Part shown: positions 1-63,033 of the stretch, piece by piece
How positions within the stretch are numbered: position 1 is the stretch's first letter
Layout: each line of letters starts with the position of its first letter
Origin: Patescibacteria group bacterium
GTDB taxonomy: Bacteria > Patescibacteriota > Patescibacteriia > UBA9570
Direction: 5' to 3'
Assembly (NCBI GenBank): GCA_041660305.1
Contig: JBAZWO010000006.1
Span: 16,432-80,431 of the forward strand
Length of the DNA: 64,000 nucleotides
The notes under the pieces: generated by a model
Database searches by the model: none
The model's input: the letters and a program-made list of their open reading frames with translations, nothing else
Told to the model about the DNA's origin: nothing
Made by a program: the position numbers and the translations under genes

Positions 1-894
1 TAAATCGTGAGTAATTCTACCTGGGCGAATATCATAACAAATGGTAGCGCCAGGTTCGCGCTCTAATACTAATTGAGCAATTAGGCCGCGAATAATCGCT
101 GGATCAATCATATTGCCTTCGTTGTCAATAAAAAAGATTCTATCACCATCACCATCGGTAGCAATACCTAAATCGGCTTGTTCAGCTACAACACGCTTCA
201 TTAATTCAATATTATTTTTGGCTTTAAATGGATCTGCTTCATGCGCTGGCATGTTACCATCTAACTTGGCATTTAATTCAATAACAGTACATGGTAAATG
301 CTTAAACATAGCGCGTAAATAAGTACTACCCATGGCGTTAGCCGTATCGGTAACAATTTTAAAGGGTTTAATATTTTCTGTGCCAGCCCAAGCTATTTCA
401 AACTGAACATGTTCTTCTATAATACCAGTTTGTGTGCGCACCGATCCGCCGCCTGGAGCTGGCGCAAAATTTTGCGCTAATACCTGATCGCGCATTTCCG
501 CGATACCATTTTCGATACTAACTGGTTTTACGCCAGTGCGCACAAATTTTAAACCGTTGTATTCTTTTGGGTTATGAGAAGCCGTTATCATAACACCGCC
601 GTCGTAATGATACTTAGCCACAGCAAAATAAAACGCTGGTGTGGACACCATACCAATATCAATCACGCTAATGCCTTCATCCATAAAGGCTTGGATGACT
701 TGTTGTTTTAAGCTTGGCGACGATAAACGCATATCAGTACCCACCACTAACTCTAACGATGTAGTTCTAGTAACTTCACGTTTACGGAGTTGAGCAAATG
801 ATCGAGCCGTAGCATAAACAATGTTTTCGGTAAGATCTACACCATATACTCCACGAATATCGTAAGCTTTGTAAATAGAAGGATTTACGGTCAT
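1..894 (-). CDS. manB: phosphomannomutase/phosphoglucomutase (alpha-D-phosphohexomutase family); C-terminal part lies outside the window
   Basis: Own translation of the minus strand from the ATG at 894 gives MTVNPSIYKAYDIRGVYG... It carries the active-site loop TASHNP and the metal loop DGDGDR. There is no stop before position 1, which explains its absence from the ORF track. Confidence 0.9.
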   Translation of the reverse strand, partial: MTVNPSIYKAYDIRGVYGVDLTENIVYATARSFAQLRKREVTRTTSLELVVGTDMRLSSPSLKQQVIQAFMDEGISVIDIGMVSTPAFYFAVAKYHYDGGVMITASHNPKEYNGLKFVRTGVKPVSIENGIAEMRDQVLAQNFAPAPGGGSVRTQTGIIEEHVQFEIAWAGTENIKPFKIVTDTANAMGSTYLRAMFKHLPCTVIELNAKLDGNMPAHEADPFKAKNNIELMKRVVAEQADLGIATDGDGDRIFFIDNEGNMIDPAIIRGLIAQLVLEREPGATICYDIRPGRITHDL

Positions 895-1042: not shown

Positions 1043-1170
1043 CTACCTTCCATCCCCAACCCTTCCCTCCTCTAAAGAGGGAAGGGAGAAATTTCTTCTC
1101 CTCCCTTTAGAGGGGAGGCCTCCGGTTCTACGAAGTCGTAGGCTCGGAGAGAGGTTGGAAGGTGGGGTAG
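1043..1170. repeat. GC-rich nested-hairpin element, copy A (CTACC...GGTAG termini)
   Basis: A 128-bp GC-rich island in AT-rich DNA. It has a perfect 10-bp hairpin at 1060-1069/1077-1086 (CCCTTCCCTC/GAGGGAAGGG) and CTACGA-AG-TCGTAG at 1128-1141. Positions 1043-1090 (48 nt) are identical to 60077-60124. Confidence 0.85.
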
Positions 1171-1888
1171 TTTTTTTTGCAACCGTAACAATATTACGCT
1201 TATTCTCTGAATAAGCTTGTTGTTGTATTTGCCAGCCAGTAGCGTTTAATAAATAATTTAATTCTTTTAACGTAAAACCATGATAATAACGCTGGGCTAA
1301 AATTTTTCCAGCGCCATTTTTCCAAGGAATTAACGCATCGCCTGGATCGTATTGATTAACAAAATATTTTTTTAATTTTGGTTGATCCAAATTCCAGTTA
1401 GTCATGAATAATAGGCCAGCTGGTTTGGTTACCCGATGAAATTCTGTTAACGCTTGTAAACGTAATTGTTCAGACGGAATGTGTTGCAAGCTAGCAATGG
1501 CGGCAACAACATTAAAAACACCTTCTGGAAATGGTAGTTTTAACATTGAGCTTACAATGAAATTTAATTCAGGATATCGTTGTTTAGCGTTGGTGATTAA
1601 TTTTTCGGAAATATCTAGGCCGGTGTATTGTACGGGCTTGATTTTATTGATAATTTCCGCTAATCTGCCGTTACCACAACCGACATCTAATATTGTAATT
1701 TTATCAGCCCGCCTCGCCTCGGCGGAGCTTTCGGCGTAGTCGAGGCGGGTATTTTCATAATTTATCAGTGTTTTCAGTGCTTCAAACTCTCTCCAGGCAT
1801 ATTGTCTGGTTCGTGTAAATTCGTCAGCGATGGTATTATAATCCTGAGTGATTTTATCTATTAATTTTTGCGCCAATGCTAATTGCAT
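1043..1888 (-). CDS. class I SAM-dependent methyltransferase, Trm9/ALKBH8-MT-like (putative tRNA cm5U34 methyltransferase); last ~42 aa encoded by repeat element A
   Basis: Motif I is ILDVGCGNGRL. The N-terminus DYNTIADEFTRTRQYAW, plus AIASLQHIP, TNWNLDQ and LIPW..RYYHGFTLKEL, resemble the Trm9 signature as I recall it. The stop codon TAG is the reverse complement of the element's terminal CTA (1043-1045). Confidence 0.75.
   Translation of the reverse strand: MQLALAQKLIDKITQDYNTIADEFTRTRQYAWREFEALKTLINYENTRLDYAESSAEARRADKITILDVGCGNGRLAEIINKIKPVQYTGLDISEKLITNAKQRYPELNFIVSSMLKLPFPEGVFNVVAAIASLQHIPSEQLRLQALTEFHRVTKPAGLLFMTNWNLDQPKLKKYFVNQYDPGDALIPWKNGAGKILAQRYYHGFTLKELNYLLNATGWQIQQQAYSENKRNIVTVAKKTTPPSNLSPSLRLRRTGGLPSKGRRRNFSLPSLEEGRVGDGR
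1708..1749. repeat. GC-rich inverted repeat inside the methyltransferase CDS
   Basis: CCCGCCTCG (1708-1716) pairs perfectly with CGAGGCGGG (1741-1749). The spacer contains a TCGGCG direct repeat. The element is translated in frame as ..YAESSAEARRADK.. just upstream of motif I. Confidence 0.7.
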
Positions 1889-3429
1889 TACAAAGTATAG
1901 TTTACGAAGCCATTAATAAATACATAGATAACATTAATGCTTTGCGAGTTATTAAAGCGACGCATGCTAAGCGTTATCATATTACTATGCCCACTAATGC
2001 TAGCATATTAGCTGAATATCAAACAATGTTACAAGCACAACTAATTAAGCCGAGTTTAGTATTAGAAAAATTATTGCAAATTCGTAGTGTGCGTACTTTA
2101 TCTGGCATTGCACCTATTTGTGTTTTAACTAAACCGTATCCTTGTCCGGGTCGTTGTATCTATTGTCCAAGTGAAGCTAATATGCCAAAAAGTTACATGG
2201 ATACCGAACCGGGTGCTATGCGTGCTTTACAACTACAATTTGATCCGTATTTACAAGTTACTAAACGCATTGAAGCTTTAGAACGTAATGGTCATAGGCC
2301 GGAAAAATGTGAGTTAATTATACTTGGTGGCACTTGGTCGGCCTACCAACCTGATTATCAGGAATGGTTCATGAGACGCTGTTATGAAGGGTTTAATGGA
2401 GACGTTTCTACTACACTTGATGAAGCGAAACGGTTCAACGAAACCGCTAAATACCGAGTCATTGGTTGTACCATAGAAACCAGGCCAGATCATATTACTG
2501 AAGCTGAAGTAAAACGTTTACGTTGGTTAGGTGCTACACGTGTACAAATGGGAGTGCAAACAGTAAATATAGATGTTTTACAGGCGGCTAGACGTGAGCA
2601 AACTAATGAACAAGTAAAATATGCTACACAACTTTTAAAAGAAGCGGGTATTAAAATTACTTATCACATGATGCAGAATTTACCAGGCGCTACTCCAACA
2701 ACAGATTTACAAGATATAAAAACTATTTTTACTGATTCTAGTTATCAGCCTGATCACTTAAAAATTTATCCTTGTGTAGTGGTAAAGTCAGCACCACTTT
2801 ACCAGGTTTGGCAAAAAGAGGAATATCAGCCTTACGATTTAGATACACTCACTAATTTGTTAATTGCTATTAAAACGCAAGTGCCGCGTTATGTGCGCAT
2901 TGAGCGTTTGGTACGTGATATTCCCGCTAATTCTATTGCGGCCGGTAATGTAGTAACTAATTTACGGCAAATCATGCAGTTAAGAAAAGTGCAATGTAAA
3001 TGTATTCGTTGCCGAGAGCCTCGGGGTGATAATACCGGTATTAATGAAGCACAATTATTTATCGAGCAATACACAGCCAGCGCTGGCCAGGAATATTTTA
3101 TTAGTTATGAAAATCCAGAGCGCACTAAACTATTTGGCTTTATGCGTTTGCGTTTACAAAATATTAAACAACACTGGTATGGAGTGTTGCAGGATACAGC
3201 TATTATTCGTGAACTGCATATCTATGGTCGATTAGTGCCGATAGCCGATAACAGCAATGTGATACAGCATAAAGGTTTTGGTAAAAAATTAATGCTCGAA
3301 GCCGAGCGTATTGCTCAAGAACAAAATTTCCAAAAAATAGCTGTTATTGCCGGCGTCGGCGTGCGGGAATATTATGAAAAGTTAGGGTATAGGTTGGACG
3401 AGGAGTATATGATAAAAAATCTTCATTGA
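1876..3429 (+). CDS. elp3: Elp3-family radical SAM / GNAT acetyltransferase (tRNA U34 carboxymethylation enzyme homologue)
   Basis: Radical-SAM cluster motif CPGRCIYCP, a long Elp3-like core and a C-terminal GNAT-like segment (HKGFGKKLMLEAERIA). The start codon overlaps the divergent methyltransferase start by 13 nt. An internal TTG at 1942 is an alternative start. Confidence 0.85.
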   Translation: MLIALQSIVYEAINKYIDNINALRVIKATHAKRYHITMPTNASILAEYQTMLQAQLIKPSLVLEKLLQIRSVRTLSGIAPICVLTKPYPCPGRCIYCPSEANMPKSYMDTEPGAMRALQLQFDPYLQVTKRIEALERNGHRPEKCELIILGGTWSAYQPDYQEWFMRRCYEGFNGDVSTTLDEAKRFNETAKYRVIGCTIETRPDHITEAEVKRLRWLGATRVQMGVQTVNIDVLQAARREQTNEQVKYATQLLKEAGIKITYHMMQNLPGATPTTDLQDIKTIFTDSSYQPDHLKIYPCVVVKSAPLYQVWQKEEYQPYDLDTLTNLLIAIKTQVPRYVRIERLVRDIPANSIAAGNVVTNLRQIMQLRKVQCKCIRCREPRGDNTGINEAQLFIEQYTASAGQEYFISYENPERTKLFGFMRLRLQNIKQHWYGVLQDTAIIRELHIYGRLVPIADNSNVIQHKGFGKKLMLEAERIAQEQNFQKIAVIAGVGVREYYEKLGYRLDEEYMIKNLH

Positions 3430-3533: not shown

Positions 3534-4352
3534 ATGAAAAAAATCACTCCACAAGGATTGCAAGTATATACGTTTAAGCGGAATGACAACGATTATATTT
3601 CTTTAACTGACATAGCTCGTTATAAAAACACTGACGAACCAAAAGATATAGTCAAAAATTGGATGCGAACTAGAAGTACTATTGAATTTCTTGGGATTTG
3701 GGAGCAGTTAAATAATCCAAGATTCAAAGGGGTCGAATTCGATGCCTTTAAAAATTCAGCTGGTAGTAATTCTTTTGTATTATCGCCTCAAAAATGGATA
3801 GAACATACCAATGCTATTGGAGTGGTATCAAAATCTGGGAATGGCGGTGGTACATTTGCTCATAAGGATATAGCCTTTGAATTTGCTTCATGGATTAGCC
3901 CAGAATTCAAACTTTATCTCATTAAAGAATTTCAGCGCTTAAAAGACGAAGAAAATGAGCGTTTGCAAATAGGCTGGAGTACAAAACGTATGCTTACTAA
4001 AATAAATTATCATATACATACAGATGCTATTCAACGGCACTTAATTCCTAATCGCTTAGCACAAAACGAAATTAATATTATCTATGCGAACGAAGCCGAT
4101 GTATTAAATAAAGCCTTGTTTGGAAAAACAGCTAAAGAATGGCGAGCTAAAAATCCAAAAAAAGCTGGTAATATCCGCGATTATGCCGATGTTGTACAAC
4201 TGGTTTGTTTAGCGAATTTAGAAAGTTTGAACGCTGAATTTATTCGCCAAAACATCAAACAATCAGATCGCTTAATAAAATTAAACGAAATAGCCATTAT
4301 CCAAATGCGAGCGTTGTTAGCTAATAATACACTTAAACGCTTGGGGCGCTAG
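3534..4352 (+). CDS. KilA-N domain-containing DNA-binding protein (phage/mobile-element associated family)
   Basis: The N-terminal YISLTDIARYKN...FAHKDIAFEFASWISPEFKLYLIKEF pattern is typical of KilA-N proteins. Confidence 0.8.
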   Translation: MKKITPQGLQVYTFKRNDNDYISLTDIARYKNTDEPKDIVKNWMRTRSTIEFLGIWEQLNNPRFKGVEFDAFKNSAGSNSFVLSPQKWIEHTNAIGVVSKSGNGGGTFAHKDIAFEFASWISPEFKLYLIKEFQRLKDEENERLQIGWSTKRMLTKINYHIHTDAIQRHLIPNRLAQNEINIIYANEADVLNKALFGKTAKEWRAKNPKKAGNIRDYADVVQLVCLANLESLNAEFIRQNIKQSDRLIKLNEIAIIQMRALLANNTLKRLGR

Positions 4353-4362
4353 GTTTTTAAAA

Positions 4363-4415
4363 GATTGTAAACTGATTGTCAACTAAAAATCTCTATTGTC
4401 AAGTAATTGTAAACT
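4363..4415. promoter_or_regulatory. four 11-bp ATTGTMAAST repeats in two abutting pairs (candidate operator/iteron-like sites)
   Basis: The units are gATTGTAAACT (4363-4373), gATTGTCAACT (4374-4384), tATTGTCAAGT (4394-4404) and aATTGTAAACT (4405-4415). A fifth, related tATTGACAAAA lies at 4433-4443. Confidence 0.45.
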
Positions 4416-4442
4416 AAAATTCATTAATTAAGTATTGACAAA

Positions 4443-4456
4443 ATCAACTAGTTGAT
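4443..4456. promoter_or_regulatory. perfect 14-bp palindrome ATCAACTAGTTGAT abutting the antitoxin start codon (candidate TA operator)
   Basis: The palindrome is read directly from the sequence. It sits between a TTGACA hexamer (4435-4440) and the ATG at 4457. Confidence 0.45.
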
Positions 4457-4720
4457 ATGGATCAATTAATTACAACTAATAATACTATAGGCGCATTTGC
4501 GGCTAAAACGCATTTATCTGCCATTTTGGAAAAAGTGCAGGCCGGGCAGGTGTTTACAATTACTAAAAACGGTAAGGCCGTGGCCGAAATTAAATCGGTG
4601 CAGTCAAATTCAGCCAAAGCTCACACAGCGTTAGCGATGGCTCGTAAAATACGAGAATCGGTGGTTGGCACAGTTACTCGGGAGGAAATTAAAGAGATGA
4701 TTAATTATGGTAGGCCATAA
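4457..4720 (+). CDS. type II antitoxin, Phd/YefM family
   Basis: An 87-aa protein whose N-terminal pattern FAAKTHLSAILEKVQAGQVFTITKNGKAVAEI fits Phd/YefM. It lies immediately upstream of a PIN-domain ORF. Confidence 0.8.
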   Translation: MDQLITTNNTIGAFAAKTHLSAILEKVQAGQVFTITKNGKAVAEIKSVQSNSAKAHTALAMARKIRESVVGTVTREEIKEMINYGRP

Positions 4721-4723
4721 ATT

Positions 4724-5173
4724 ATGAAAAACATGATTGAGCGCTGGGTAGTGGATTCGTCTTTTACTGCGCCGTTATTTTTATCAGATGAACAATCAAA
4801 TTCTATAGATGGTTTTTTTAATACGGCTTTTCAAGAAACAATGCAAATTTTTGTGCCGGCGTTATGGTGATTTGAAATAAATAGCATTCTACAGTTATCA
4901 GTAAAACGACATCGTTTAACTCATCAACAGGTGGTTACCGCTATTGAAGTGTGTAAATATTTTAGTTTTTTTCAAATTGAGCCAGTAGTGTTCAATCAAG
5001 ATATTTTTGCTTTGGCGCAAACTCATAATTTAACCGCTTATGACGCCTCGTACTTAGATTTAGCCATTCGTAAACAAGCCGGTTTAGCTAGCTTAGATAA
5101 ACAGCTAAATGATGTGGCTAAAACATTAGGTATTGACATTATACATACAAAGTATATACTTAATACTAACTAA
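4724..5173 (+). pseudogene. vapC: VapC-type PIN-domain toxin interrupted by one in-frame TGA (4868-4870)
   Basis: Own translation from the ATG at 4724 gives MKNMIERWVVDSSFTAPLF...VPALW*FEINS..., which continues in the same frame into track ORF 4931-5173. The PIN acidic residues are present (VVDSS, FEINS, AYDASYLDLA, SLDKQL). The stop falls where PIN toxins commonly have Trp (LWWxE). Confidence 0.8.
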
Positions 5174-5192
5174 GTATTAATAAAGTATTTGT

Positions 5193-5504
5193 ATGGCCAC
5201 AACTACTATGAGTATTAAAATAGACGCACAAGTTAAACAATCTGCTCAACAAATCGCTGCGGATCTAGGCTTAAGTTTAAGCGGTGTGGTGAATGGTTTT
5301 TTAAAACAATTTGTGCGTACCAAAGCAGTGCATTTTAGCTTAGAAGAAAAAGAAATTCCGTCACCATATTTAATTAAAGCTTTAAGGGAGTCACAGGAAG
5401 ATATTGCCGCTGGCAGAGTATCGCCCGCTTTTGATAATGCTGAAGACGCTATTAAATGGTTACACACTCCTGAATCTGAGCAGAAATATGCAAATCAACT
5501 TTAG
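5193..5504 (+). CDS. type II antitoxin, RelB/DinJ family
   Basis: The N-terminal ribbon-helix-helix-like segment SIKIDAQVKQSAQQIAADLGLSLSGVVNGFLKQFV fits this family. It is followed by an overlapping toxin ORF. Confidence 0.8.
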   Translation: MATTTMSIKIDAQVKQSAQQIAADLGLSLSGVVNGFLKQFVRTKAVHFSLEEKEIPSPYLIKALRESQEDIAAGRVSPAFDNAEDAIKWLHTPESEQKYANQL

Positions 5505-5709
5505 TAAACGATTTAATAAACAATATAAAAAAGCAGCTTTAAATATTCAGAGAGCTTTTAACAATCGTTTACAAATTTTTATAGATAACAAATTTCATTC
5601 TAGTTTACATAATCATGCCTTAACAGGACAATTTGAAGGTTTTCGGAGTATTAATGTTACTGGAGATTGGCGAGCATTATTTCATGAGAATGAAGATGAT
5701 TCAATATAG
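5488..5709 (+). CDS. type II toxin, RelE/YafQ-family mRNA interferase
   Basis: The internal ATG at 5488 of track ORF 5404-5709 gives MQINFSKRFNKQYKK...LHNHALTGQFEGFRSINVTGDWRALF. It overlaps the antitoxin 3' end by 17 nt. Confidence 0.75.
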   Translation: MQINFSKRFNKQYKKAALNIQRAFNNRLQIFIDNKFHSSLHNHALTGQFEGFRSINVTGDWRALFHENEDDSI

Positions 5710-5811: not shown

Positions 5812-7056
5812 ATGCTCGAACATCTTAGACAACAAGATCCGGAATTGGCCGGTTATATCCAAGAAGAGCTTAAGCGTCAGAGAGAGAATATCGAACTAAT
5901 TCCCTCTGAAAATTTTGTTTCTGTGCCAGTGCTAGAAGCTTTAGGCAGTATTTGTACCAATAAATATTCCGAAGGATATCCGGGCAAGCGCTATTACGGC
6001 GGCAATGAGTGGATTGATAAAATCGAGCAATTGGCCATTGACCGAGCTAAACAAATTTTTGGCGCGGAGCATGTTAATGTTCAGCCGTTATCTGGGGCGC
6101 CGGCTAATTTAGCGGCTTATTCAGCTTTGTTAAAACCAGGCGATACGGTTTTAGGCATGGATTTATCGCATGGTGGCCATTTAACCCATGGGCATCCGGT
6201 TACATTATCAGCTAAGATTTACAACTTTGTGCGTTATAAAACGGCGCCAGATGGCACAATTGATTATGATAATTTACGAGCCATGGCTTTGGAGCATAAG
6301 CCCAAACTTATTTTAGCCGGTTATTCAGCTTATTCGCGTGATTTGGATTATAAAAAGTTTCAAGCGATTGCCGATGAAGTGGGCGCTATAACTATGGCTG
6401 ACGTAGCGCATGTGGCTGGCTTAATTGCTGGAGGTGAATTTAATAATCCAGTGCCGATATTTGACGTAGTGACTACCACTACGCATAAAACTTTACGCGG
6501 ACCCAGAGGCGGCATGATTATGTGTAAAGAAAAATATGCTCAAGCTATTAACAAGGCAGTGTTTCCAGGTTTACAAGGTGGTCCGCACGATCATCAAATA
6601 GCGGCTTTAGCAGTGGCTTTGGGTGAAGCACTCAAGCCGGAATTTAAAGATTATGCCAGACAAGTAAAAAAGAATGCTAAAGTATTGTGTAATAAATTGC
6701 AAGCGGCTGGTATGAAAATTATGTTTGGTACTACTGAAAATCATTTAGTGTTGGCTGATGTTACACCATTGGGTATAGCTGGAAAAATCGCTCAAACAGT
6801 TTTAGATGAAGTGAAAATTACTTTAAACATGAATATGATTCCAGATGATTCGCGTAAACCAACTGATCCATCTGGTATTCGGTTAGGTTCGGCTCCTACC
6901 ACTACTCGTGGCATGAAAGAACCGGAAATGGAAGTAATTGCTGATTTAATTGTGAAAACCTTAAAAAATCACGACAATGCGGCAGTGAAGGCTGAAATAA
7001 AGCAACAGGTACTAGCTTTAACCGCTAAATTTCCGTTGTATCCGGAGTTAGGCTAA
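5812..7056 (+). CDS. glyA: serine hydroxymethyltransferase
   Basis: Full-length match to the SHMT pattern, including the PLP site TTTTHKTLRGPRGG and SENFVS..EGYPGKRYYGG. Confidence 0.97.
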   Translation: MLEHLRQQDPELAGYIQEELKRQRENIELIPSENFVSVPVLEALGSICTNKYSEGYPGKRYYGGNEWIDKIEQLAIDRAKQIFGAEHVNVQPLSGAPANLAAYSALLKPGDTVLGMDLSHGGHLTHGHPVTLSAKIYNFVRYKTAPDGTIDYDNLRAMALEHKPKLILAGYSAYSRDLDYKKFQAIADEVGAITMADVAHVAGLIAGGEFNNPVPIFDVVTTTTHKTLRGPRGGMIMCKEKYAQAINKAVFPGLQGGPHDHQIAALAVALGEALKPEFKDYARQVKKNAKVLCNKLQAAGMKIMFGTTENHLVLADVTPLGIAGKIAQTVLDEVKITLNMNMIPDDSRKPTDPSGIRLGSAPTTTRGMKEPEMEVIADLIVKTLKNHDNAAVKAEIKQQVLALTAKFPLYPELG

Positions 7057-8126: not shown

Positions 8127-9747
8127 ATTTAATTTTCCATTCATCTTGTTAATCACGTTGATCATGATCATCATGGTCACGAATTGTATTTGGATTTATC
8201 AAGACCAAAGTCCGCCATTATCAGATATGGCTGGCCATTCGTTTCGTAGTGTGCAAATGGCTCATTGGTTACAGGATGGTAAATTGTTAAGTATTTTAAA
8301 ACAAGATACCATTTATCCACCATTTACTTATCTGGTTACGGGAATTATTTTTTTATTAGTTGGTTATTATCCAGATATTCCACAGTATTCGTTATTGTTA
8401 TGGGTAATAATATTAATGATTTCTATTTACAGTATTGGTAACACGATTTATAAAAATAAATATTTAGCGTTAGGCGCAACAGCGTTAACCATGTGTTATC
8501 CATTGGTAGCACATTTTAGCAGAATTTATGATCTTGATTTTCCGTTAACGGCCTTAGTAACAGCTAGTATGGCGGTATTATTACAAACGAATCATTTTGC
8601 TAAACGCCGGGAAACTATTGTTTTTTCATTACTAGTGGTAGCGGTATTATTAACCAAATGGACAGGAGTGTTTTTTATAGTGGGGCCAGCGTTTATTGTA
8701 TTATTATCAAAACGAAATAACATTAATATAAAAAATATTAGTCTGGCATTAGGCATTATTTTGGTGTTGACCATGCCTTGGTATTGGTTGCACACCAACA
8801 TCATTTTAGATATTGCCGAGGCTACGCGCAATAATGTGTTTTCTGTGCCACACGAGAATTTGTTACGTTTAAAAAGTTTGTTATTTTATGCACGATCTAT
8901 TACGCAAGGCATTATTTGGCCACTAACTCTAATATTTTTAACTGGTGTGATTATTTGTTTTAAAAAAATAAAACGTTGTTATTTTTGGCTATTAGTTAGT
9001 TGGTTGATAATACCATATTTAATCTTCACGTTTATTTATTCAAAAGAGATTCGTTATTTAATGCCGTTGTATCCGGCGCTAGCTCTTTGCAGTATGAGTT
9101 GTTTTAGTTATTTATTTTCAGCTTACTCACTGAAGCTTAAGCGTAGGTGGGTGTTCTCAGTAATTATTTCAGTATTCTCAGTGATTCTGATGTTTTGTAT
9201 TTGGTTCGATACATCTTGGGGCACAAGACTGTTACCATTTTCTCATGCCTACGGTTATCAAAAAATTACTCCTAAACAAGTGTATTATGGGTTTACGTAT
9301 CCTACGCAGTATCACACAACATTAATGTTAGTTGCTCAAGAACTAGCTAATATAGGTTCAGCTAAAGTAGCGGTAGTGCCGAATAGTATTTTTTTAACGG
9401 CTACGCAAATACAATATTACACGGCGTTGCATGGTAATATAAAGCTTAATTTTTCATTGAGTAGTAAATTGCGCAATCCGGCGTGGCGAGATGTATTACC
9501 TCAAGCCGATTATGTGATTACCAAAACCGGCGAACAAGGGCCAAAATTATGGGCAGCTAATTTAAAAGATATTGCAACAGCTGAACAGAATAATGATGTT
9601 ATTTTTCAGCAATTTGAATTAATTGGTCAGTGGCAATTAAATGGTATTGAAACTAGTGCGCAACAAATTAATTTATATAAAAAAAACGATAAATTACTCC
9701 CTTTCCCCTTAATAGGGGAAAGGGTTGGGGATAGAGGTAGGATTTAA
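8119..9747 (+). CDS. polytopic membrane protein, GT-C fold glycosyltransferase-like (PMT/ArnT, GT39/GT83-like); last ~16 aa encoded by repeat element C
   Basis: It has at least 10 hydrophobic segments, an IYPPFTYL motif typical of PMT_2/ArnT-like proteins, and a large C-terminal soluble domain. The C-terminal LLPFPLIGERVGDRGRI is read from the GC-rich hairpin. Confidence 0.6.
   Translation: MRKFNFPFILLITLIMIIMVTNCIWIYQDQSPPLSDMAGHSFRSVQMAHWLQDGKLLSILKQDTIYPPFTYLVTGIIFLLVGYYPDIPQYSLLLWVIILMISIYSIGNTIYKNKYLALGATALTMCYPLVAHFSRIYDLDFPLTALVTASMAVLLQTNHFAKRRETIVFSLLVVAVLLTKWTGVFFIVGPAFIVLLSKRNNINIKNISLALGIILVLTMPWYWLHTNIILDIAEATRNNVFSVPHENLLRLKSLLFYARSITQGIIWPLTLIFLTGVIICFKKIKRCYFWLLVSWLIIPYLIFTFIYSKEIRYLMPLYPALALCSMSCFSYLFSAYSLKLKRRWVFSVIISVFSVILMFCIWFDTSWGTRLLPFSHAYGYQKITPKQVYYGFTYPTQYHTTLMLVAQELANIGSAKVAVVPNSIFLTATQIQYYTALHGNIKLNFSLSSKLRNPAWRDVLPQADYVITKTGEQGPKLWAANLKDIATAEQNNDVIFQQFELIGQWQLNGIETSAQQINLYKKNDKLLPFPLIGERVGDRGRI
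9699..9741. repeat. GC-rich hairpin element, copy C
   Basis: A perfect 10-bp stem CCCTTTCCCC/GGGGAAAGGG with loop TTAATA (9699-9724), then GGGGATAGAGGTAGG. The 26-nt core and GGGGATAGAGGTA are shared with 61646-61690. Confidence 0.85.
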
Positions 9748-10871
9748 TTGTATCGTAAAAAATAAATGTGTCTGACCACTTGGGCATGAGCGCGGCCGTA
9801 AAAAATCGGCTCATGAAATGGTTCAAAATGATTTTGCTGTAACACGTTTTGCAACGGCAAAGTTAGCATGCCATCAAACCGGCGCCAAGCGGGCAGTGCT
9901 ATTACTAAGCGTGCGTTGGGCGCTAAGAGTTTTGGTAATACTGTAAATACATCTTGGTAAAATTTGGTTAATTGGCGATGAATTTTTTCGGTTTTGTTGG
10001 GGTGCACGGGACCTAAATAACCTTCACTAACAATGCAGTTAATAGAATTAACCGGTAATATATTAGATAATTGCAATATATCACTAAGATGTAACGGCAC
10101 ATTAGGTAGTTTTAACCAAGCTAAATTATTAGCGGAATCTTCAATGCATTTTTTAGAAATATCTGATCCAATAATGTTTTTATGCCCTAATAATAGAGCT
10201 TCTTGTAATACCGTACCAGAACCACAGAACGGATCTAACAATGTTTCAGCTGGTTGAGGTTGAACAATATTTACCATCATTTTCGCTACTTTTGGCGGAA
10301 GCATGCCAGAAAAGTGATCGCGTTGCGGGCGACCGTAATCGCGTTGGGCATATTCTTCGAATGGTTGCACGGTTAAGGTTTGGCCAAGTATAATATGTTT
10401 TTTATAAATGGCAATAATAAAATCGGTTTGCTGATCGAGTAAATGTTCTTTTTTTACAATTACAGAAGATAAAGCCGGCTCCAAACTTTCCACTAAACGC
10501 ACTGAACCATTTACACGCAAGTCTTTTTTCCAGGCAATACCAATCGGCTTAATTTTTTTAGCATAATGTGTTACCACTTCAGGTGTAACTTGGTTATCGG
10601 CCGCGTACACACTAAAACCAAAGTGTAATTTTTTATCCGGTAACTGTAATTGAGCTAAGTAATCTTTTAGTTGTTCAATGCCGGCTAAACTACGGTCAAT
10701 CTGGCCAATGATTTTAGCTGTTTTTATAGTGCCACCTAATTGATCTATGTCTGGCAATGTATCTAATTGAGCAATCGAGCCGTGTTGCCAAGTAATATTA
10801 TTATAAAGCGTAATCAACTCTAAAGCGGATAATTCCGGAGTATTACCTAAAACAGCTAAATATTTATTCAT
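9744..10871 (-). CDS. SAM-dependent RNA methyltransferase, UPF0020/Trm11/RlmL-like catalytic domain
   Basis: Motif I is LLDPFCGSGTVLQEALLLG. The N-terminal region of about 180 aa could be a THUMP-like RNA-binding module, though this is not verifiable here. Confidence 0.6.
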   Translation of the reverse strand: MNKYLAVLGNTPELSALELITLYNNITWQHGSIAQLDTLPDIDQLGGTIKTAKIIGQIDRSLAGIEQLKDYLAQLQLPDKKLHFGFSVYAADNQVTPEVVTHYAKKIKPIGIAWKKDLRVNGSVRLVESLEPALSSVIVKKEHLLDQQTDFIIAIYKKHIILGQTLTVQPFEEYAQRDYGRPQRDHFSGMLPPKVAKMMVNIVQPQPAETLLDPFCGSGTVLQEALLLGHKNIIGSDISKKCIEDSANNLAWLKLPNVPLHLSDILQLSNILPVNSINCIVSEGYLGPVHPNKTEKIHRQLTKFYQDVFTVLPKLLAPNARLVIALPAWRRFDGMLTLPLQNVLQQNHFEPFHEPIFYGRAHAQVVRHIYFLRYN

Positions 10872-11812: not shown

Positions 11813-11885
11813 CTACCTCACCCTGTCTCTCGACTTACGCTCGAGACATCCCTCTCCTATTAGGAGAGGGAAAGAGGGAGAGGTA
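11813..11885. repeat. GC-rich nested-hairpin element, copy E
   Basis: 11-bp terminal inverted repeats TACCTCACCCT (11814-11824) and AGGGAGAGGTA (11875-11885) with 1 mismatch. Inner hairpins are TCTCGA/TCGAGA (11828-11846) and CCCTCTCC/GGAGAGGG (11850-11870). Confidence 0.8.
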
Positions 11886-57921: not shown

Positions 57922-57940
57922 ATCACCGGAAGGTTTTGTT
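57913..57940 (+). terminator. intrinsic terminator (attenuator) upstream of aroF
   Basis: A perfect 9-bp stem ACCTTCCGG (57913-57921) / CCGGAAGGT (57926-57934) with loop ATCA, followed by TTTGTT. Confidence 0.65.
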
Positions 57941-57983
57941 ATATGAATCAGTTACAAATAATAAATTAAGCCATAATACAAAT

Positions 57984-59000
57984 ATGATAATAGTAATGCA
58001 AGAAGCAGCGGCCAAAGCACAAGTAACGGCCGTAGTGAATCATGTTAAAGAATTAGGCCTCAAGCCTGTGTTATTAGAAGGCACCGAACGTAATGTGATT
58101 GCCGTAATTGGTGATGAGCGTACGTTAGATATGCACGCCATAAATGCCATGGCCGGTGTGGAAAAAGTAATGCCCGTATTAGCGCCTTTTAAATTAGCTT
58201 CCCGTGAACACGCTCATGTAAAATCGGTTATCAATATTACGGAGCAGGTAAGTATTGGTGGTAAACGGTTAGCCATCATGGCCGGCAACTGTGCGGTAGA
58301 AACAGCCGAGATTTCTATGGCCACGGCGAAAGCGGTAAAACAAGCTGGAGCTAATATTCAACGGGGTGGTGCCTTTAAGCCGCGCTCGTCACCATACTCG
58401 TTTCAAGGTTTAGGCGAGGCCGGCTTGAAAATATTACAAGCGGTGCGAGCCGAAACAGGCTTGCCAATTATTACAGAAATATTAGATCCGCGGCATGTAG
58501 AGCAGGTAGCTAGTTACGCTGATATTTTGCAAATCGGTACACGTAACATGCAAAATTTTGAATTGTTAAAAGAAGTGGGTAACTGTAAAAAACCAGTATT
58601 GTTAAAACGTGGCATGGCGGCCACCATTGAAGAGTTTTTGTTATCAGCGGAATATATTTTATCGAGTGGTAACCCTAACGTGATTTTATGTGAACGGGGG
58701 ATTCGTACCTACGAAACCGCCACCCGTAATACCTTAGATATTTCCGCTATTCCCGTGTTAAAACACATGACGCATTTACCAGTAATAGTGGATCCTTCGC
58801 ATGCCGCTGGCAAACGAGATTACGTAGCAGCCTTAGCTAAAGCCGCTATTGCTGCCGGAGCTGATGGGTTACTGATGGATGTGCATCCTGATCCGGTAAA
58901 AGCGTTGGTAGATTCCGATCAAGCGTTAAACTTTGAATTATTTGCTGAATTAATGGTAGAGTTAAAACGGATTGCCGAGGCAGTTGGACGAACCATTTAA
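57984..59000 (+). CDS. aroF: 3-deoxy-7-phosphoheptulonate (DAHP) synthase, type I-beta with N-terminal ferredoxin-like regulatory domain
   Basis: I prefer the ATG at 57984; the track start is a TTG at 57936. The N-terminus MIIVMQE...[11 protein letters not shown] matches the Thermotoga-type DAHPS regulatory domain. The core has [16 protein letters not shown] and VDPSHA. Confidence 0.9.
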
Positions 59001-59002
59001 TT

Positions 59003-60016
59003 ATGACACTAACAATCACTTCAAAGTCCCAATCAAAAAGTTATCCAGTATTTATTCAAGCTGGCAGTTTAGCTAAATTTAAATTTCCTAAAGATTCAGT
59101 AATTATTACCGATCGTGTAATTGCTAAACACTATGCCAAGTTCATTAAAAAATATCGGCGCATTATTCTACCTAGTGGTGAAGCTACTAAAAACTTAACT
59201 ACTATTCAAAAAATTTGTGAGCAATTAGTTAAGTTAGGTTGCAATCGATCTACTACGTTAATGGCGTTAGGCGGCGGGGTAATTGGGGATATTACTGGGT
59301 TTGTGGCTGCGGTGTACATGCGTGGTGTGGCGTATTATCAGTGCCCAACTACATTATTGGCCATGGTGGATTCTAGTTTAGGTGGAAAAACGGGAGTGGA
59401 TTTATCGGCTGGGAAAAATTTAGTTGGGACTATTTATCCACCGGTAGCGGTAATAATGGATCCGTTAGTTTTAACCACATTACCAAATAAAATATTCACA
59501 ACTAGTTTAGGTGAAGTAGTAAAATATGGTTTATTAGACGGCACATTTTTTGCTTGGTTAGAAAAAAATAAAGTTAATATAAAACAGCGTAAATTAAATA
59601 CCTTACAACAATTAATTATTAAGTGTGCGGAAATAAAACAAGCCATTGTGGAAGCGGATGAACATGAAGGCGGGGCACGTATGCTACTTAATTTAGGTCA
59701 CACATTTGGCCACGCGTTTGAACAATTAAGTGGCTACAGGTTACCACATGGTCAAGCGGTGGCCATTGGTTTAGTGCAGGCTGCTCAGTTTGCTCACATG
59801 CTGGAACTAGAGCGTTTAATTAATTTGTTACAGTATTTTAATCTACCTATCAAACTAGCTAAACCGTATCCCATTAATCAAGTAATTAAAGCTATGCAGG
59901 CTGATAAAAAACGTCATGGTAATCAATTTACCTTAATATTACCCGAAGCCATTGGGCACACCACCATTCATAATTATATTACTAAGCAGCAAATAATTAA
60001 GTTTTTTATAAATTAA
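59003..60016 (+). CDS. aroB: 3-dehydroquinate synthase
   Basis: GGGVIGDITGFVAAVYMRGV, DSSLGGKTGVD, and NLGHTFGHAFE. Confidence 0.92.
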   Translation: MTLTITSKSQSKSYPVFIQAGSLAKFKFPKDSVIITDRVIAKHYAKFIKKYRRIILPSGEATKNLTTIQKICEQLVKLGCNRSTTLMALGGGVIGDITGFVAAVYMRGVAYYQCPTTLLAMVDSSLGGKTGVDLSAGKNLVGTIYPPVAVIMDPLVLTTLPNKIFTTSLGEVVKYGLLDGTFFAWLEKNKVNIKQRKLNTLQQLIIKCAEIKQAIVEADEHEGGARMLLNLGHTFGHAFEQLSGYRLPHGQAVAIGLVQAAQFAHMLELERLINLLQYFNLPIKLAKPYPINQVIKAMQADKKRHGNQFTLILPEAIGHTTIHNYITKQQIIKFFIN

Positions 60017-60178
60017 ACACCCTCAACCCCCTAAACATCCTACCTCACTCCCCCTAACCCCCTCTCTCCTCTGATTCTACCTTCCATCCCCAACCCTTCC
60101 CTCCTCTAAAGAGGGAAGGGAGAATTACGAAATTATTCCCTCCTTCCTTTGAGGAAGGAGGGTTAGGGAGGAAGGTAG
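60017..60178. repeat. GC-rich nested-hairpin element, copy B (composite), filling the aroB/aroA-aroK spacer
   Basis: Outer imperfect inverted repeats lie at 60040-60060 and 60160-60178 (CTACCT.../...AGGTAG). The inner 48 nt at 60077-60124 are identical to 1043-1090. A perfect 10-bp hairpin CCCTCCTTCC/GGAAGGAGGG lies at 60138-60162. Confidence 0.85.
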
Positions 60179-60211
60179 TATTGATGAGAAGAGACAGAAG
60201 GCCAAAGAGTT

Positions 60212-61693
60212 ATGCATCTTAAACCCGTCAAAATCACCCTTACTTTACCTGGTTCTAAATCGTTAACCCAACGAGCGTTAATTTGTGCTAGCTTGGCGCA
60301 AGGGCAATCAATTATTACGGCACCTAATTATGGTGATGATTTACAATATTTAATTAAGGCATTGCAACAACTAGGTGTACGTATACAAAAAAAATCGAAC
60401 CAACTAATTATAAATGGAGTAGCTGGAAAGTTTTGTGTGCCAACTAAGCCAATTTATGTAGGCGATTCCGGTGCTAATTATCGTTTTCTAGCCGAATTAG
60501 TACCAGTCGGTACCAAATTAACGGGTTCAGCTCAATTACAAAAACGTTTACTAAAAACGGCGCCAACTAGTCAAACGATATCTGGAAAATTATTAGCCGG
60601 TACCCTAACTAAGATACCTGATAAGTTAGTTTCCAAAGGTTATGTGGCCATGACACAAGCCGTTATTCGTGATTTTTCCGGACGCGGTCGAAAATATATT
60701 ATCGAGCCCGATGCTAGTGCGGCCACATATTGGCTCACTTATAACTGGATAACTGGTGCAAAAATAACGTTTAGTAACTGGCCAGTAAAATCTTATCAAC
60801 CTGATTTTCAGTATGCTAAAGCATTGCAACAGTTAACTAACGGCCAAACAGCGTTTGATTTTAATACCATGCCGGATAGCGTAATGAGTTTAGCTGTAGC
60901 AGCCATTTTTACCAAGAAAATAATTACTATTAAAAATATTTCCCAGCTTACTTACAAAGAAAGTAATCGTTTGCAAGCGTTACATTATAATCTAACTAAA
61001 ATCAACATAAAAAATACTATTACAAAAAACAGCATTACTATTTATGGCACGGGTGGTAAATTTAAACATTCCAAAATTAAAACTTTTAATGATCACCGCT
61101 TGGCCATGAGTTTTGGGGTATTAGGTTTGCCAGTAGATAAACCAAATTGTGTAAATAAAAGTTATCCTAATTTTTGGCAAGATTATAAAAAAATTCAAGA
61201 GGCTAATGTAGTGTTAACCGGTATGCGTGGGGTAGGCAAAACTACGTTAGGTAAACAATTAGCCAAACAATGGGGTATGAAGTTTGTGGATTTAGATCAA
61301 CTTATTGAACGTAAAGCTAAATTACCAATTGCTGAAATTGTTGCACGCTACGGCTGGAAAAAATTTCGTGCACTTGAACATCAAGTTTGTAAACAAATTA
61401 CTAAATTACAAAATACGGTTATTGCAACTGGCGGCGGCACATTAATGTATACACGTAATTACCAATTACTAAAACATAATTATATTATTTTATTAACCGC
61501 GCCATTAACTACATTAGCTAAAAGAATTAAACAAGATAACAATATTAGGCCAGCATTATCAAAAAATAACACGGCATTATCAGAATTAAAGGCGATTTGG
61601 GATAAGCGCAAAGAAACATATTATAAAATAGCGGATTTAATTTCCCCCTTTCCCCTTAATAGGGGAAAGGGGGCGAGGGGGATAGAGGTATGA
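60212..61693 (+). CDS. aroA-aroK: bifunctional EPSP synthase (short form, ~330 aa) / shikimate kinase; last ~16 aa encoded by repeat element D
   Basis: AroA motifs are LPGSKS, GDSGANYRF, EPDASAATY, KESNRL, NDHRLAMSF and KSYPNFW. The AroK domain starts near 61211 (TGMRGVGKTTLGKQLA, VDLD, GGG). Confidence 0.85.
   Translation: MHLKPVKITLTLPGSKSLTQRALICASLAQGQSIITAPNYGDDLQYLIKALQQLGVRIQKKSNQLIINGVAGKFCVPTKPIYVGDSGANYRFLAELVPVGTKLTGSAQLQKRLLKTAPTSQTISGKLLAGTLTKIPDKLVSKGYVAMTQAVIRDFSGRGRKYIIEPDASAATYWLTYNWITGAKITFSNWPVKSYQPDFQYAKALQQLTNGQTAFDFNTMPDSVMSLAVAAIFTKKIITIKNISQLTYKESNRLQALHYNLTKINIKNTITKNSITIYGTGGKFKHSKIKTFNDHRLAMSFGVLGLPVDKPNCVNKSYPNFWQDYKKIQEANVVLTGMRGVGKTTLGKQLAKQWGMKFVDLDQLIERKAKLPIAEIVARYGWKKFRALEHQVCKQITKLQNTVIATGGGTLMYTRNYQLLKHNYIILLTAPLTTLAKRIKQDNNIRPALSKNNTALSELKAIWDKRKETYYKIADLISPFPLNRGKGARGIEV
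61644..61690. repeat. GC-rich hairpin element, copy D
   Basis: A perfect 12-bp stem CCCCCTTTCCCC/GGGGAAAGGGGG with loop TTAATA (61644-61673), then GGGGGATAGAGGTA. The core is shared with copy C at 9699-9741. Confidence 0.85.
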
Positions 61694-63033
61694 TTTGTAT
61701 TGTCATCACCAATCCATCTCAAATTAAAACAGCCAACAAAACCGCCGCTAATTTATTAGAATTGCGCACAGATTTATATAAAATTTTTTCTTTAAGTAAA
61801 TTAGTGAAACAATGCCAGAAACCTGTTATTGTTACCATTAAAAATCAAGATAAACAGTTATTGCAAGAAGCTTTAAATTTAAACGTAGCTTATATTGATA
61901 TTGATTACAAAAATAAATTACTGTTAAACTATTTTGAAAAAAATAACAAAAATAATAAAACCAAATTAATTATTTCGTATCATAATTTTTCTCACACTCC
62001 TTCATTCAAACAGTTGGATCGGTTGGTTAAATCAGGCGTGAATAAAATAGCAACCATGATTAACGCGGTTGAGGATAACTGGGTAATCGCGCAGTTATTA
62101 AAAAAATATCCTAATAAAATTACCGCTATTGGCATGGGGGAATTAGGGATCATGACAAGACTGCATCCGTGGCAGAAGATTAGTTATTTTGCGATTGGCT
62201 TTGGTAGAGACGCCTTGCAAGGCGTCTCTACCAAAAAAATTGCTCCAGGGCAATTAACTATTCAAGAGCAAAAATTAAAATTATATGGCATTATTGGTAA
62301 TCCGGTGCAGCATAGCTTATCGCCAAAATTACATAATAGTTGGTTCAAGCAGCATAATATTTTAGCACTATATCAACGCTGGCAGGTAAAGACGTTGCAT
62401 GCAACGTCTCTACAGTTAATGATGAAAATATTCAGATTTTTTGATTTAGCCGGCGCGTCGGTAACCATGCCATATAAAAAAGATATTATTAAATATTTAG
62501 ATAGCATTAATATTCATGCCAAAAAGATTGGTGCAGTTAATACCATTGTGCGGAAAGGAAATAAATTAATTGGCTATAATACCGATTGGATCGGGGTAAA
62601 ATTAGTATTTAACCCCCTGCCTTGCAGGGAAGGGGGTAGGGGGAAGGGTCTACGCGTCTTAATCTTAGGCCGCGGTGGCGCAGCTCAGGCAGTGGCGTAT
62701 GCCATGAAAAAAATGGGTGCGAAATCAATTAACATGTTATCACGTCATGATAAACCAGATATAAATTTTGATATTCTAATTAACGCCACACCCGTGCGTG
62801 ATAAATTATTAATTCCGAAAGAATTATTACACGGTAAAATCGTGATGGATTGTAATTACCTGCCTTCGCTAAAGCTATGGCAGGCAGGTGGCGCTACTAA
62901 ATTATTACGTGTGGCAAAAAAAATGAACGCAATTACTATAGATGGATTACCAATGTTAATCAATCAAGCCAAAGAGCAATTTAGATTGTGGACTAGTAGA
63001 GACGTAGCGCGCTACGTCTCTACTATGTTATAA
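61690..63033 (+). CDS. aroD-aroE: bifunctional type I 3-dehydroquinate dehydratase / shikimate 5-dehydrogenase
   Basis: AroD motifs are ELRTDL, IISYHNF and KIATM. AroE motifs are YGIIGNPVQHSLSP, SVTMPYK, AVNTI, GYNTD and LGRGGAAQA. The ATG overlaps the upstream stop (ATGA). Confidence 0.88.
   Translation: MICIVITNPSQIKTANKTAANLLELRTDLYKIFSLSKLVKQCQKPVIVTIKNQDKQLLQEALNLNVAYIDIDYKNKLLLNYFEKNNKNNKTKLIISYHNFSHTPSFKQLDRLVKSGVNKIATMINAVEDNWVIAQLLKKYPNKITAIGMGELGIMTRLHPWQKISYFAIGFGRDALQGVSTKKIAPGQLTIQEQKLKLYGIIGNPVQHSLSPKLHNSWFKQHNILALYQRWQVKTLHATSLQLMMKIFRFFDLAGASVTMPYKKDIIKYLDSINIHAKKIGAVNTIVRKGNKLIGYNTDWIGVKLVFNPLPCREGGRGKGLRVLILGRGGAAQAVAYAMKKMGAKSINMLSRHDKPDINFDILINATPVRDKLLIPKELLHGKIVMDCNYLPSLKLWQAGGATKLLRVAKKMNAITIDGLPMLINQAKEQFRLWTSRDVARYVSTML
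62201..62234. repeat. perfect 34-bp palindrome, GTAGAGACG-N10-CGTCTCTAC family, copy 1
   Basis: TTGGTAGAGACGCCTTG|CAAGGCGTCTCTACCAA. It is in frame as GRDALQGVST in the AroD-AroE linker. Confidence 0.9.
62386..62413. repeat. 28-bp palindrome (1 mismatch), same family, copy 2
   Basis: GTAAAGACGTTGCA|TGCAACGTCTCTAC. It is in frame as VKTLHATSLQ, a different frame from copies 1 and 3. Confidence 0.85.
62612..62637. repeat. GC-rich hairpin inside aroE part
   Basis: ACCCCC (62612-62617) pairs with GGGGGT (62632-62637). The alternative is CCCTGC-CTT-GCAGGG (62615-62629). It is translated as NPLPCREGGRGKG just before the GRGGA nucleotide-binding loop. Confidence 0.6.
62858..62889. repeat. GC-rich inverted repeat inside aroE part
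   Basis: ACCTGCC (62858-62864) pairs with GGCAGGT (62883-62889). It is translated as YLPSLKLWQAGG. Confidence 0.45.
62994..63025. repeat. perfect 32-bp palindrome, GTAGAGACG-N10-CGTCTCTAC family, copy 3
   Basis: TAGTAGAGACGTAGCG|CGCTACGTCTCTACTA. It is in frame as SRDVARYVST at the extreme C-terminus of AroD-AroE. Confidence 0.9.

Follow-up and report, generated by a model that had tools for sequence, protein, structure and literature searches.

In this study, we show that a 64-kb window of DNA from a Patescibacteria group bacterium (the whole stretch analysed, contig JBAZWO010000006.1, positions 16,432 to 80,431; G+C content 34%) carries, head to head, the genes of an Elp3 protein and of a Trm9-like class I S-adenosylmethionine (SAM) methyltransferase, and that this pairing recurs across the candidate phyla radiation (CPR). 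We propose, with a probability of about 0.75 and reasoning from sequence, that the two proteins form a two-step wobble-uridine pathway of the eukaryotic and archaeal type in a CPR bacterium, in which Elp3 would make 5-carboxymethyluridine at position 34 of tRNA (cm5U34) and the methyltransferase would esterify it to 5-methoxycarbonylmethyluridine (mcm5U34). The first step is predicted from family membership: Elp3 alone, as in archaea, would add a carboxymethyl group to C5 of U34, using a radical domain with a [4Fe-4S] cluster and SAM together with acetyl-CoA bound in its GNAT domain. The second step is predicted from catalytic residues and gene linkage: the Trm9-like enzyme would use SAM to methyl-esterify the carboxyl group, and the mcm5U34 so formed may be 2-thiolated elsewhere. 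The two genes would head divergent operons with start codons that overlap by 13 nt, a junction for which the usual CPR form appears to be CATATG or CATG.

Both open reading frames (ORFs) lie where a preliminary description of this DNA had placed them, the methyltransferase at 1043-1888 on the minus strand (281 residues) and Elp3 at 1876-3429 on the plus strand (517 residues), and every motif which that description had quoted is present (CPGRCIYCP, DYNTIADEFTRTRQYAW, ILDVGCGNGRL, AIASLQHIP, TNWNLDQ and LIPW...RYYHGF). The features on which the argument depends are the following.

1876-3429, plus strand: Elp3, a radical-SAM plus GNAT protein with an archaeal-type extended N-terminus, predicted to make cm5U34 on tRNA (TIGR01211, Pfam and PDB matches).
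1172-1888, minus strand: conserved core (residues 1-239) of the Trm9-like class I SAM methyltransferase, with cm5U34 as predicted substrate and mcm5U34 as predicted product (Yarrowia Trm9 match, essential residues, AlphaFold2 model).
1876-1888, no strand: 13-nt overlap of the divergent start codons, ATGCTAATTGCAT (the sequence itself and alignments).

The identification of Elp3, which the preliminary description had made from the domain order, is borne out by the curated family model TIGR01211 ELP3, which the protein passes with 517 bits against a cut-off of 350 and which covers residues 14-516 of its 517; NCBI already names CPR proteins Elp3. Pfam recognizes Radical_SAM (64 bits), Radical_SAM_C and Acetyltransf_1 (21.3 bits, with a cut-off of 20.7). 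The closest solved structures are the Elp3 of M. infernus (6ia8; 2.8e-114, query residues 33-515) and that of Dehalococcoides mccartyi (5l7j; 4.9e-112, query residues 72-516), and solved Elp3 proteins of archaea, bacteria and eukaryotes all match at 1e-91 to 1e-114 in alignments that reach their C-terminal end. Because the alignment starts at residue 33 with the M. infernus protein and at residue 72 with the D. mccartyi protein, the window Elp3 has kept the N-terminal extension. All three cysteines of the Fe-S triad C90-x3-C94-x2-C97 (CPGRCIYC) are invariant in 15 sequences, that is, the window protein and 14 relatives. Among the same 14 relatives the zinc motif CxCxxC (CKCIRC here) and the acetyl-CoA motif QHxGxG (QHKGFGKKL here) are nearly invariant.

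The methyltransferase has a DVGCGNG motif I and matches Pfam Methyltransf_11 at 72.6 bits. When it was searched as a single sequence against 177,635 PDB sequences, the best match was Yarrowia Trm9 (5cm2_Z, 3e-14). A family profile built from 36 homologues aligned with the whole chain of Yarrowia Trm9 at 4e-27 (98 bits), compared with 75 bits, over the Rossmann core only, for the runner-up. The alignment with Trm9 goes past the Rossmann core and takes in TR..W in the N-terminal part and, on the C-terminal side, the W, RYYH and N motifs. In the reciprocal direction, with Yarrowia Trm9 as query against all ORFs of the window and of the 80 CPR loci described below, 81 of 81 matches fell in this family (best 4e-24). 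The family itself is large, with 1,778 sequence clusters at E<=1e-30; JGI labels call some relatives TRM9, and one relative bears the name 'tRNA (uracil-5-)-methyltransferase TRM9'.

It has been demonstrated that the activity of yeast Trm9 (ScTrm9) requires R29, D72, H116, W145, W168, R241, Y243 and N271, mutation of any of these eight residues abolishing or strongly reducing it, and Y18 has also been implicated (Létoquart et al., PMC4678810). All eight are present in the window protein, as R28, D92, H136, W165, W189, R200, Y202 and N232 respectively, D92 (ScTrm9 D72) being the acidic SAM-binding residue. Among 79 CPR species they are conserved in 77 (R28), 78 (D92), 73 (H136), 77 (W165), 77 (W189), 77 (R200), 49 (Y202) and 76 (N232), so that seven of the eight are kept in 92-99% of the homologues; the equivalent of Y18, Y17 here, is kept in 76 of the 79. 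Among solved structures the protein is thus closest to Trm9 by sequence and it keeps the catalytic and substrate-binding residues of Trm9, whereas by sequence and residues it does not resemble a small-molecule methyltransferase. These findings support its designation as a Trm9-like methyltransferase, with a function predicted from the conservation of its catalytic residues and from its linkage to Elp3.

The linkage is not peculiar to this genome. One genome per species was scanned with the methyltransferase profile, which yielded 80 loci; those with an informative name are all Patescibacteria, while many are labelled just 'bacterium' or are apparently mislabelled. In 75 of the 80 species an Elp3 gene is found upstream of the methyltransferase, on the opposite strand. 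It is directly adjacent in about 70 and separated by 1-2 kb of other sequence in a handful. Of the five species without this arrangement, three have contigs that break off at the methyltransferase gene or shortly upstream of it. The pair is found in Magasanik-, Kerfeld-, Peregrini-, Gracili-, Nealson-, Falkow-, Kuenen- and Gribaldobacteria, and across the paired loci the methyltransferases are 33-45% and the Elp3 proteins 40-68% identical to those of the window. In an Elp3-centred scan of metagenomes, whose sample was small and mixed, CPR-like Elp3 proteins mostly had a methyltransferase partner, whereas a distant Elp3 group (L093-L116; 33-40% identity, mostly from ERZ77*, OD* and OE* assemblies) had no Trm9-like gene within 4 kb. 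Therefore, the pairing is a trait of CPR and is not general for prokaryotic Elp3.

One alternative is that the methyltransferase combines a Trm9-like fold with some other substrate, be it another RNA position, a protein or a small molecule, and that its adjacency to Elp3 reflects shared regulation or genome history. We consider this unlikely, but several observations lean towards it or weigh against the pathway proposed here. Only generic methyltransferase families score above threshold in Pfam and NCBIfam, the other matches falling below. A Foldseek search with the AlphaFold2 model (predicted local distance difference test, pLDDT, 86) does not single out Trm9, which ranks second behind an uncharacterised archaeal methyltransferase; Trm9 has the best target TM-score (0.82), yet it is not separated from the many unrelated class I methyltransferases that stand at nearly the same level. 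Y202, the equivalent of ScTrm9 Y243, is conserved in only 62% of the CPR homologues. A few family members (P0466, P0488 and P0378) carry a WecG/TagA glycosyltransferase or a NUDIX domain as a fusion, real or called, and some CPR-like loci have no partner nearby (L087 from the Elp3 side, L023 and L035 from the methyltransferase side), both of these counting as minor objections. Finally, eukaryotic and H. volcanii Trm9 require Trm112, and no Trm112-like gene was found among the small ORFs of the window or the conserved neighbours of the pair. In a search near the pair for a conserved third gene, such as one for Trm112 or a thiolase, the recurrent ones were only glyA, a Mur-type ligase, the phosphoglucomutase gene (PGM) and a small zinc-ribbon protein. 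What tells against another substrate is that the family shows 92-97% conservation at the Trm9 positions R29, H116, R241, N271 and W145, for which a role in binding the uracil ring and the carboxylate of cm5U has been proposed, and that the adjacency extends across very divergent CPR lineages, such long-lived synteny being rare without functional linkage. In a separate matter of structure identity, PDB entry 6f5z was considered as H. volcanii Trm9 and rejected, the entry being Hvo_0019-Trm112.

It is also conceivable, but to our mind quite unlikely, that the pair acts on U34 and that its end product is not mcm5U but 5-carbamoylmethyluridine (ncm5U) or another derivative, or that the pathway supplements, for some tRNAs, a co-existing MnmE-MnmG system (MnmEG) and does not replace it. 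When Trm9 is missing, yeast and H. volcanii do indeed turn cm5U, which is no stable end product there, into other forms; however, all Trm9 enzymes characterised so far methyl-esterify cm5U, and the active-site residues are identical here.

The proposed Elp3-Trm9 pair is also distinguished by its junction. Bases 1876-1888 read ATGCTAATTGCAT, in which the two ATG starts share 13 nt on opposite strands; the overlap, which had been noticed before, can be read directly, and homologue alignments back both starts. Most of 35 methyltransferase relatives start at the same aligned methionine and have in common the N-terminal pattern M-x4-A-x2-L-I...DYNxIAxHFSxTR, and all 14 of the close Elp3 relatives likewise start at the same methionine, with conserved positions within the first 28 residues. 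The same 13-nt overlap was inferred from tblastn coordinates in a 69%-identical relative (L083). Both starts could be assigned at 71 loci, of which 12 show the form CATATG, without spacer, and 8 the form CATG, with a 2-nt overlap. A spacing of <=5 nt was found in 32 of these 71 Elp3-methyltransferase pairs, whereas among 122 control pairs, the other divergent genes of the same DNA, only 2 were so close (Fisher p = 1.5e-14), the median spacing of the control pairs being 134-171 nt; wider Elp3-methyltransferase spacers often hold GC-rich palindromes or an inserted gene. Because the arrangement recurs in 75 of 80 species and because spacings of <=5 nt are enriched over control pairs, it is not due to chance. 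That the overlap is an annotation artefact, the true starts being TTG 1874-1876 (methyltransferase) and TTG 1942 (Elp3) with an ordinary short intergenic region between them, is very improbable, for although two automatic gene calls chose these later starts (giving proteins of 277 and 495 residues), the alignments do not favour them, the homologues of both proteins begin at the aligned ATG with conserved residues upstream of the alternative starts, and in 20 other species the sole plausible ATGs form CATATG or CATG.

Since the starts overlap by 13 nt, the promoter and the translation-start signals of each gene must be located in the opening codons of its partner. That each promoter has to sit inside the other gene was a point which the preliminary description had made for this locus and which generalises to other tight CPR junctions. 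A consensus promoter scan around the junction was uninformative, with 11 sites against 9.0 +/- 3.3 expected. Upstream of neither start did 36 tight loci show a -10 or Shine-Dalgarno signal at a fixed position, Shine-Dalgarno-like 4-mers being present upstream of the two starts in 3 and 2 of the 36, respectively. A selected -10 box in the D-Y-N codons was considered, as 22 of the 36 have a TANNNT hexamer upstream of Elp3 whose end falls at -45 or -47; the reverse complement of this hexamer lies in the conserved D16-Y17-N18 codons. The tyrosine codon at this site is TAT in 50 of 76 cases compared with 499 of 705 elsewhere (p = 0.36), which gives no indication of codon selection. The candidate was rejected because this codon is not enriched in TAT, and the TATAAT-like element upstream of Elp3 is regarded as a by-product. 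The absence of an untranslated spacer suggests that leaders are very short or absent and that expression is coupled, and leaderless or very-short-leader expression seems a reasonable reading of this junction.

Three further features lie within or at the end of the methyltransferase gene.

1043-1171, minus strand: C-terminal 43-residue tail of the methyltransferase ORF, probable read-through into a repeat (absent from homologues; disordered).
1039-1175, no strand: GC-rich palindromic repeat at the 3' end of the methyltransferase gene (repeat copy and fold).
1707-1750, no strand: GC-rich hairpin-forming insert, in frame, in a variable loop of the methyltransferase at about residues 47-61 (DNA fold, alignment and model).

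Thus, the coordinates given earlier for the ORF at 1043-1888 are right, whereas its last 43 residues are read-through into the GC-rich palindromic repeat and have no counterpart in homologues. They are absent from all 35 aligned homologues, most of the tail is disordered in the AlphaFold2 model (residues 255-281 have a pLDDT below 50), and the DNA that encodes them sits within the repeat; the tail is probably not a functional part of the protein. The segment 1039-1090 of the repeat is 98% identical to 60073-60124, and the fold of 1039-1175 has z = -4.1. The DNA of the insert at 1707-1750 folds with -17.4 kcal/mol (z = -5.3), and at this place the homologues show a gap or a variable insert and the confidence of the model drops. 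An in-frame hairpin insert of this kind is reminiscent of the in-frame palindromic elements of Rickettsia. Further short GC-rich palindromic repeats lie at gene ends of this AT-rich genome (9692-9756 and 61639-61703), where they give ORFs odd tails, for example the ORF that ends at 9747 and the one that starts at 11813, and similar palindromes occupy the Elp3-methyltransferase spacer in L018, L028, L029, L052, L056, L064 and L066.

The genes around the pair include two that were assigned as follows.

1-894, minus strand: phosphoglucomutase/phosphomannomutase gene, cut by the window edge, on the same strand as the methyltransferase and downstream of it (translation; Pfam).
9744-10871, minus strand: a third methyltransferase, Trm11-like (AlphaFold2 model fold, DPFCGSGT motif).

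The methyltransferase is the first gene of a minus-strand series in which phosphoglucomutase/phosphomannomutase comes next (PGM_PMM I-IV were found by Pfam in this gene on the identical contig L001), and Elp3 is the first gene of a plus-strand series. On the Elp3 side, glyA follows in 23 other CPR species, while in the window it is found at 5812-7056; the region between, 3534-5709, contains a KilA-N domain gene (3534-4352) and two apparent toxin-antitoxin pairs (4457-5709). As glyA follows Elp3 in those 23 species, this region looks like a mobile insertion into a conserved synteny. The recurrent zinc-ribbon protein has 53-55 residues (CPECKN...C..CG...EIVDEGK), is possibly LysW-like and is unlike Trm112. 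Its gene occurs at 14 loci (L007, L011, L019-L021, L024, L026, L033, L046, L047, L050, L059, L069 and L071, the named ones being Magasanikbacteria), at 12 of them on the downstream side of the methyltransferase, 1-3 kb away, and at the other 2 on the upstream side. Scans of the window with Rfam and for tRNA genes gave no matches. From translations alone, the ORFs at 57936-63033 look like a shikimate-pathway run; CPR genomes usually lack amino-acid biosynthesis, so that such a run would be unusual.

The third methyltransferase, which had also been pointed out in the preliminary description, is real and is Trm11-like by fold. Its AlphaFold2 model has a pLDDT of 94.9, and the five best fold matches are archaeal Trm11 structures, that is, of the enzyme for N2-methylguanosine at position 10 (m2G10). 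These full-length matches, among them 6zxv, 6zxw and 5e71 (E 1e-22 to 2e-19) and including a Trm11-Trm112 complex, come ahead of TrmN and Trm14. The score against TIGR01177, 71.6 bits, is far below the cut-off of 316.55. The protein is identical to one in an NCBI Patescibacteria metagenome-assembled genome, and its relatives are named 'TRM11 family', some being called Trm11 by JGI. It is probably a second enzyme of the eukaryotic and archaeal type, and of the kind that partners with Trm112, in the same genome.

Taken jointly, these genes raise the tentative possibility, which we hold to be more doubtful than the pathway itself, that CPR as a group use an archaeal/eukaryotic-type set, with stand-alone Elp3 and Trm9 leading to mcm5U34 and a Trm11-like m2G10 enzyme, that this set replaces MnmEG, that it goes back to ancient retention or early inter-domain transfer, and that its paired genes are leaderless or nearly so with promoters in the first codons of the partner. 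No MnmE- or MnmG-like ORF was found in the 64-kb window or in the loci read, which span at most 20 kb each.

It was stated in a 2017 review that bacteria have no detectable relatives of the Trm112-partner methyltransferases (PMC5372719), and a 2020 review described bacterial Elp3 as a rarity, restricted to Dehalococcoides, with no evidence for bacterial xcm5U (PMC7663514), while a 2026 paper speaks of 'numerous bacteria' that possess Elp3. Our results provide a data point opposite to reviews that deny bacteria the Trm112-type methyltransferases and a wider occurrence of Elp3, and they do so for one of the largest bacterial radiations, in the form of a Trm9 family of about 1,800 clusters that is tied gene-to-gene with Elp3 and has a Trm11-like enzyme nearby. 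The searched literature contained nothing that ties Elp3 or Trm9 to CPR or Patescibacteria. The individual parts are already annotated in databases; the conserved pair and its architecture are undescribed in that literature. If the pathway operates as proposed, it may serve as a simpler, prokaryotic system in which to study the Elp3-to-Trm9 hand-off, a step of relevance to human disease, it would be one more trait of the translation machinery that CPR have in common with archaea, and CPR tRNAs could be targets of anticodon nucleases specific for the 2-thiolated form, mcm5s2U. The zero-spacer divergent layout would itself be a natural case for promoters and translation starts embedded in coding sequence.

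The evidence therefore supports the interpretation given in the preliminary description, and with the CPR pair a known pathway would gain a new bacterial member, in an unusual and conserved zero-spacer divergent arrangement. Its closest counterpart in biochemical terms is eukaryotic Elongator with Trm9-Trm112 (ALKBH8-TRMT112 in humans), which agrees with it in both catalytic families and in the predicted order of their steps. The likeness extends to the domain layout and cofactor motifs of Elp3 and, in Trm9, to the N-terminal Y..HFS.TR..W and the eight essential residues. This stands in contrast to the organization of the system, for the CPR Elp3 is stand-alone, with no Elp1, Elp2 or Elp4-6, and contains the zinc CxCxxC typical of prokaryotes, the CPR genes are physically paired whereas the eukaryotic ones are not, and no Trm112 partner was seen in the window.

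In archaea, H. volcanii HVO_1032 (Trm9) together with Trm112 makes mcm5U, the genes of Elp3 and Trm9 are clustered in Sulfolobus solfataricus, and Trm9 has been reported only from Sulfolobales and Halobacteriales (PMC5372719). The preliminary description knew of no Elp3-Trm9 gene pair; in the searched literature this is true for bacteria, whereas a clustered pair has already been noted in S. solfataricus. The CPR pair shares with archaea the stand-alone Elp3, its extended N-terminus, as in M. infernus, and the association of the Elp3 and Trm9 genes, as in Sulfolobus. It differs in that the host is bacterial, that the family is broad in CPR and that a divergent zero-spacer layout is not described for archaea. 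The Elp3 of D. mccartyi (DmcElp3) is likewise bacterial, stand-alone and of the same fold (5l7j), but it lacks roughly the 70 N-terminal residues which CPR Elp3 keeps; it binds tRNA weakly and has very weak activity, and the searched literature is silent on a Trm9 partner of this enzyme. Lastly, MnmE-MnmG, with MnmC, makes the 5-carboxymethylaminomethyl and 5-methylaminomethyl derivatives of U34 (cmnm5U/mnm5U34) and thus acts on the same target atom, C5 of U34, with the same decoding role, but its enzymes, cofactors and products are unrelated to those predicted here for the Elp3-Trm9 pair.

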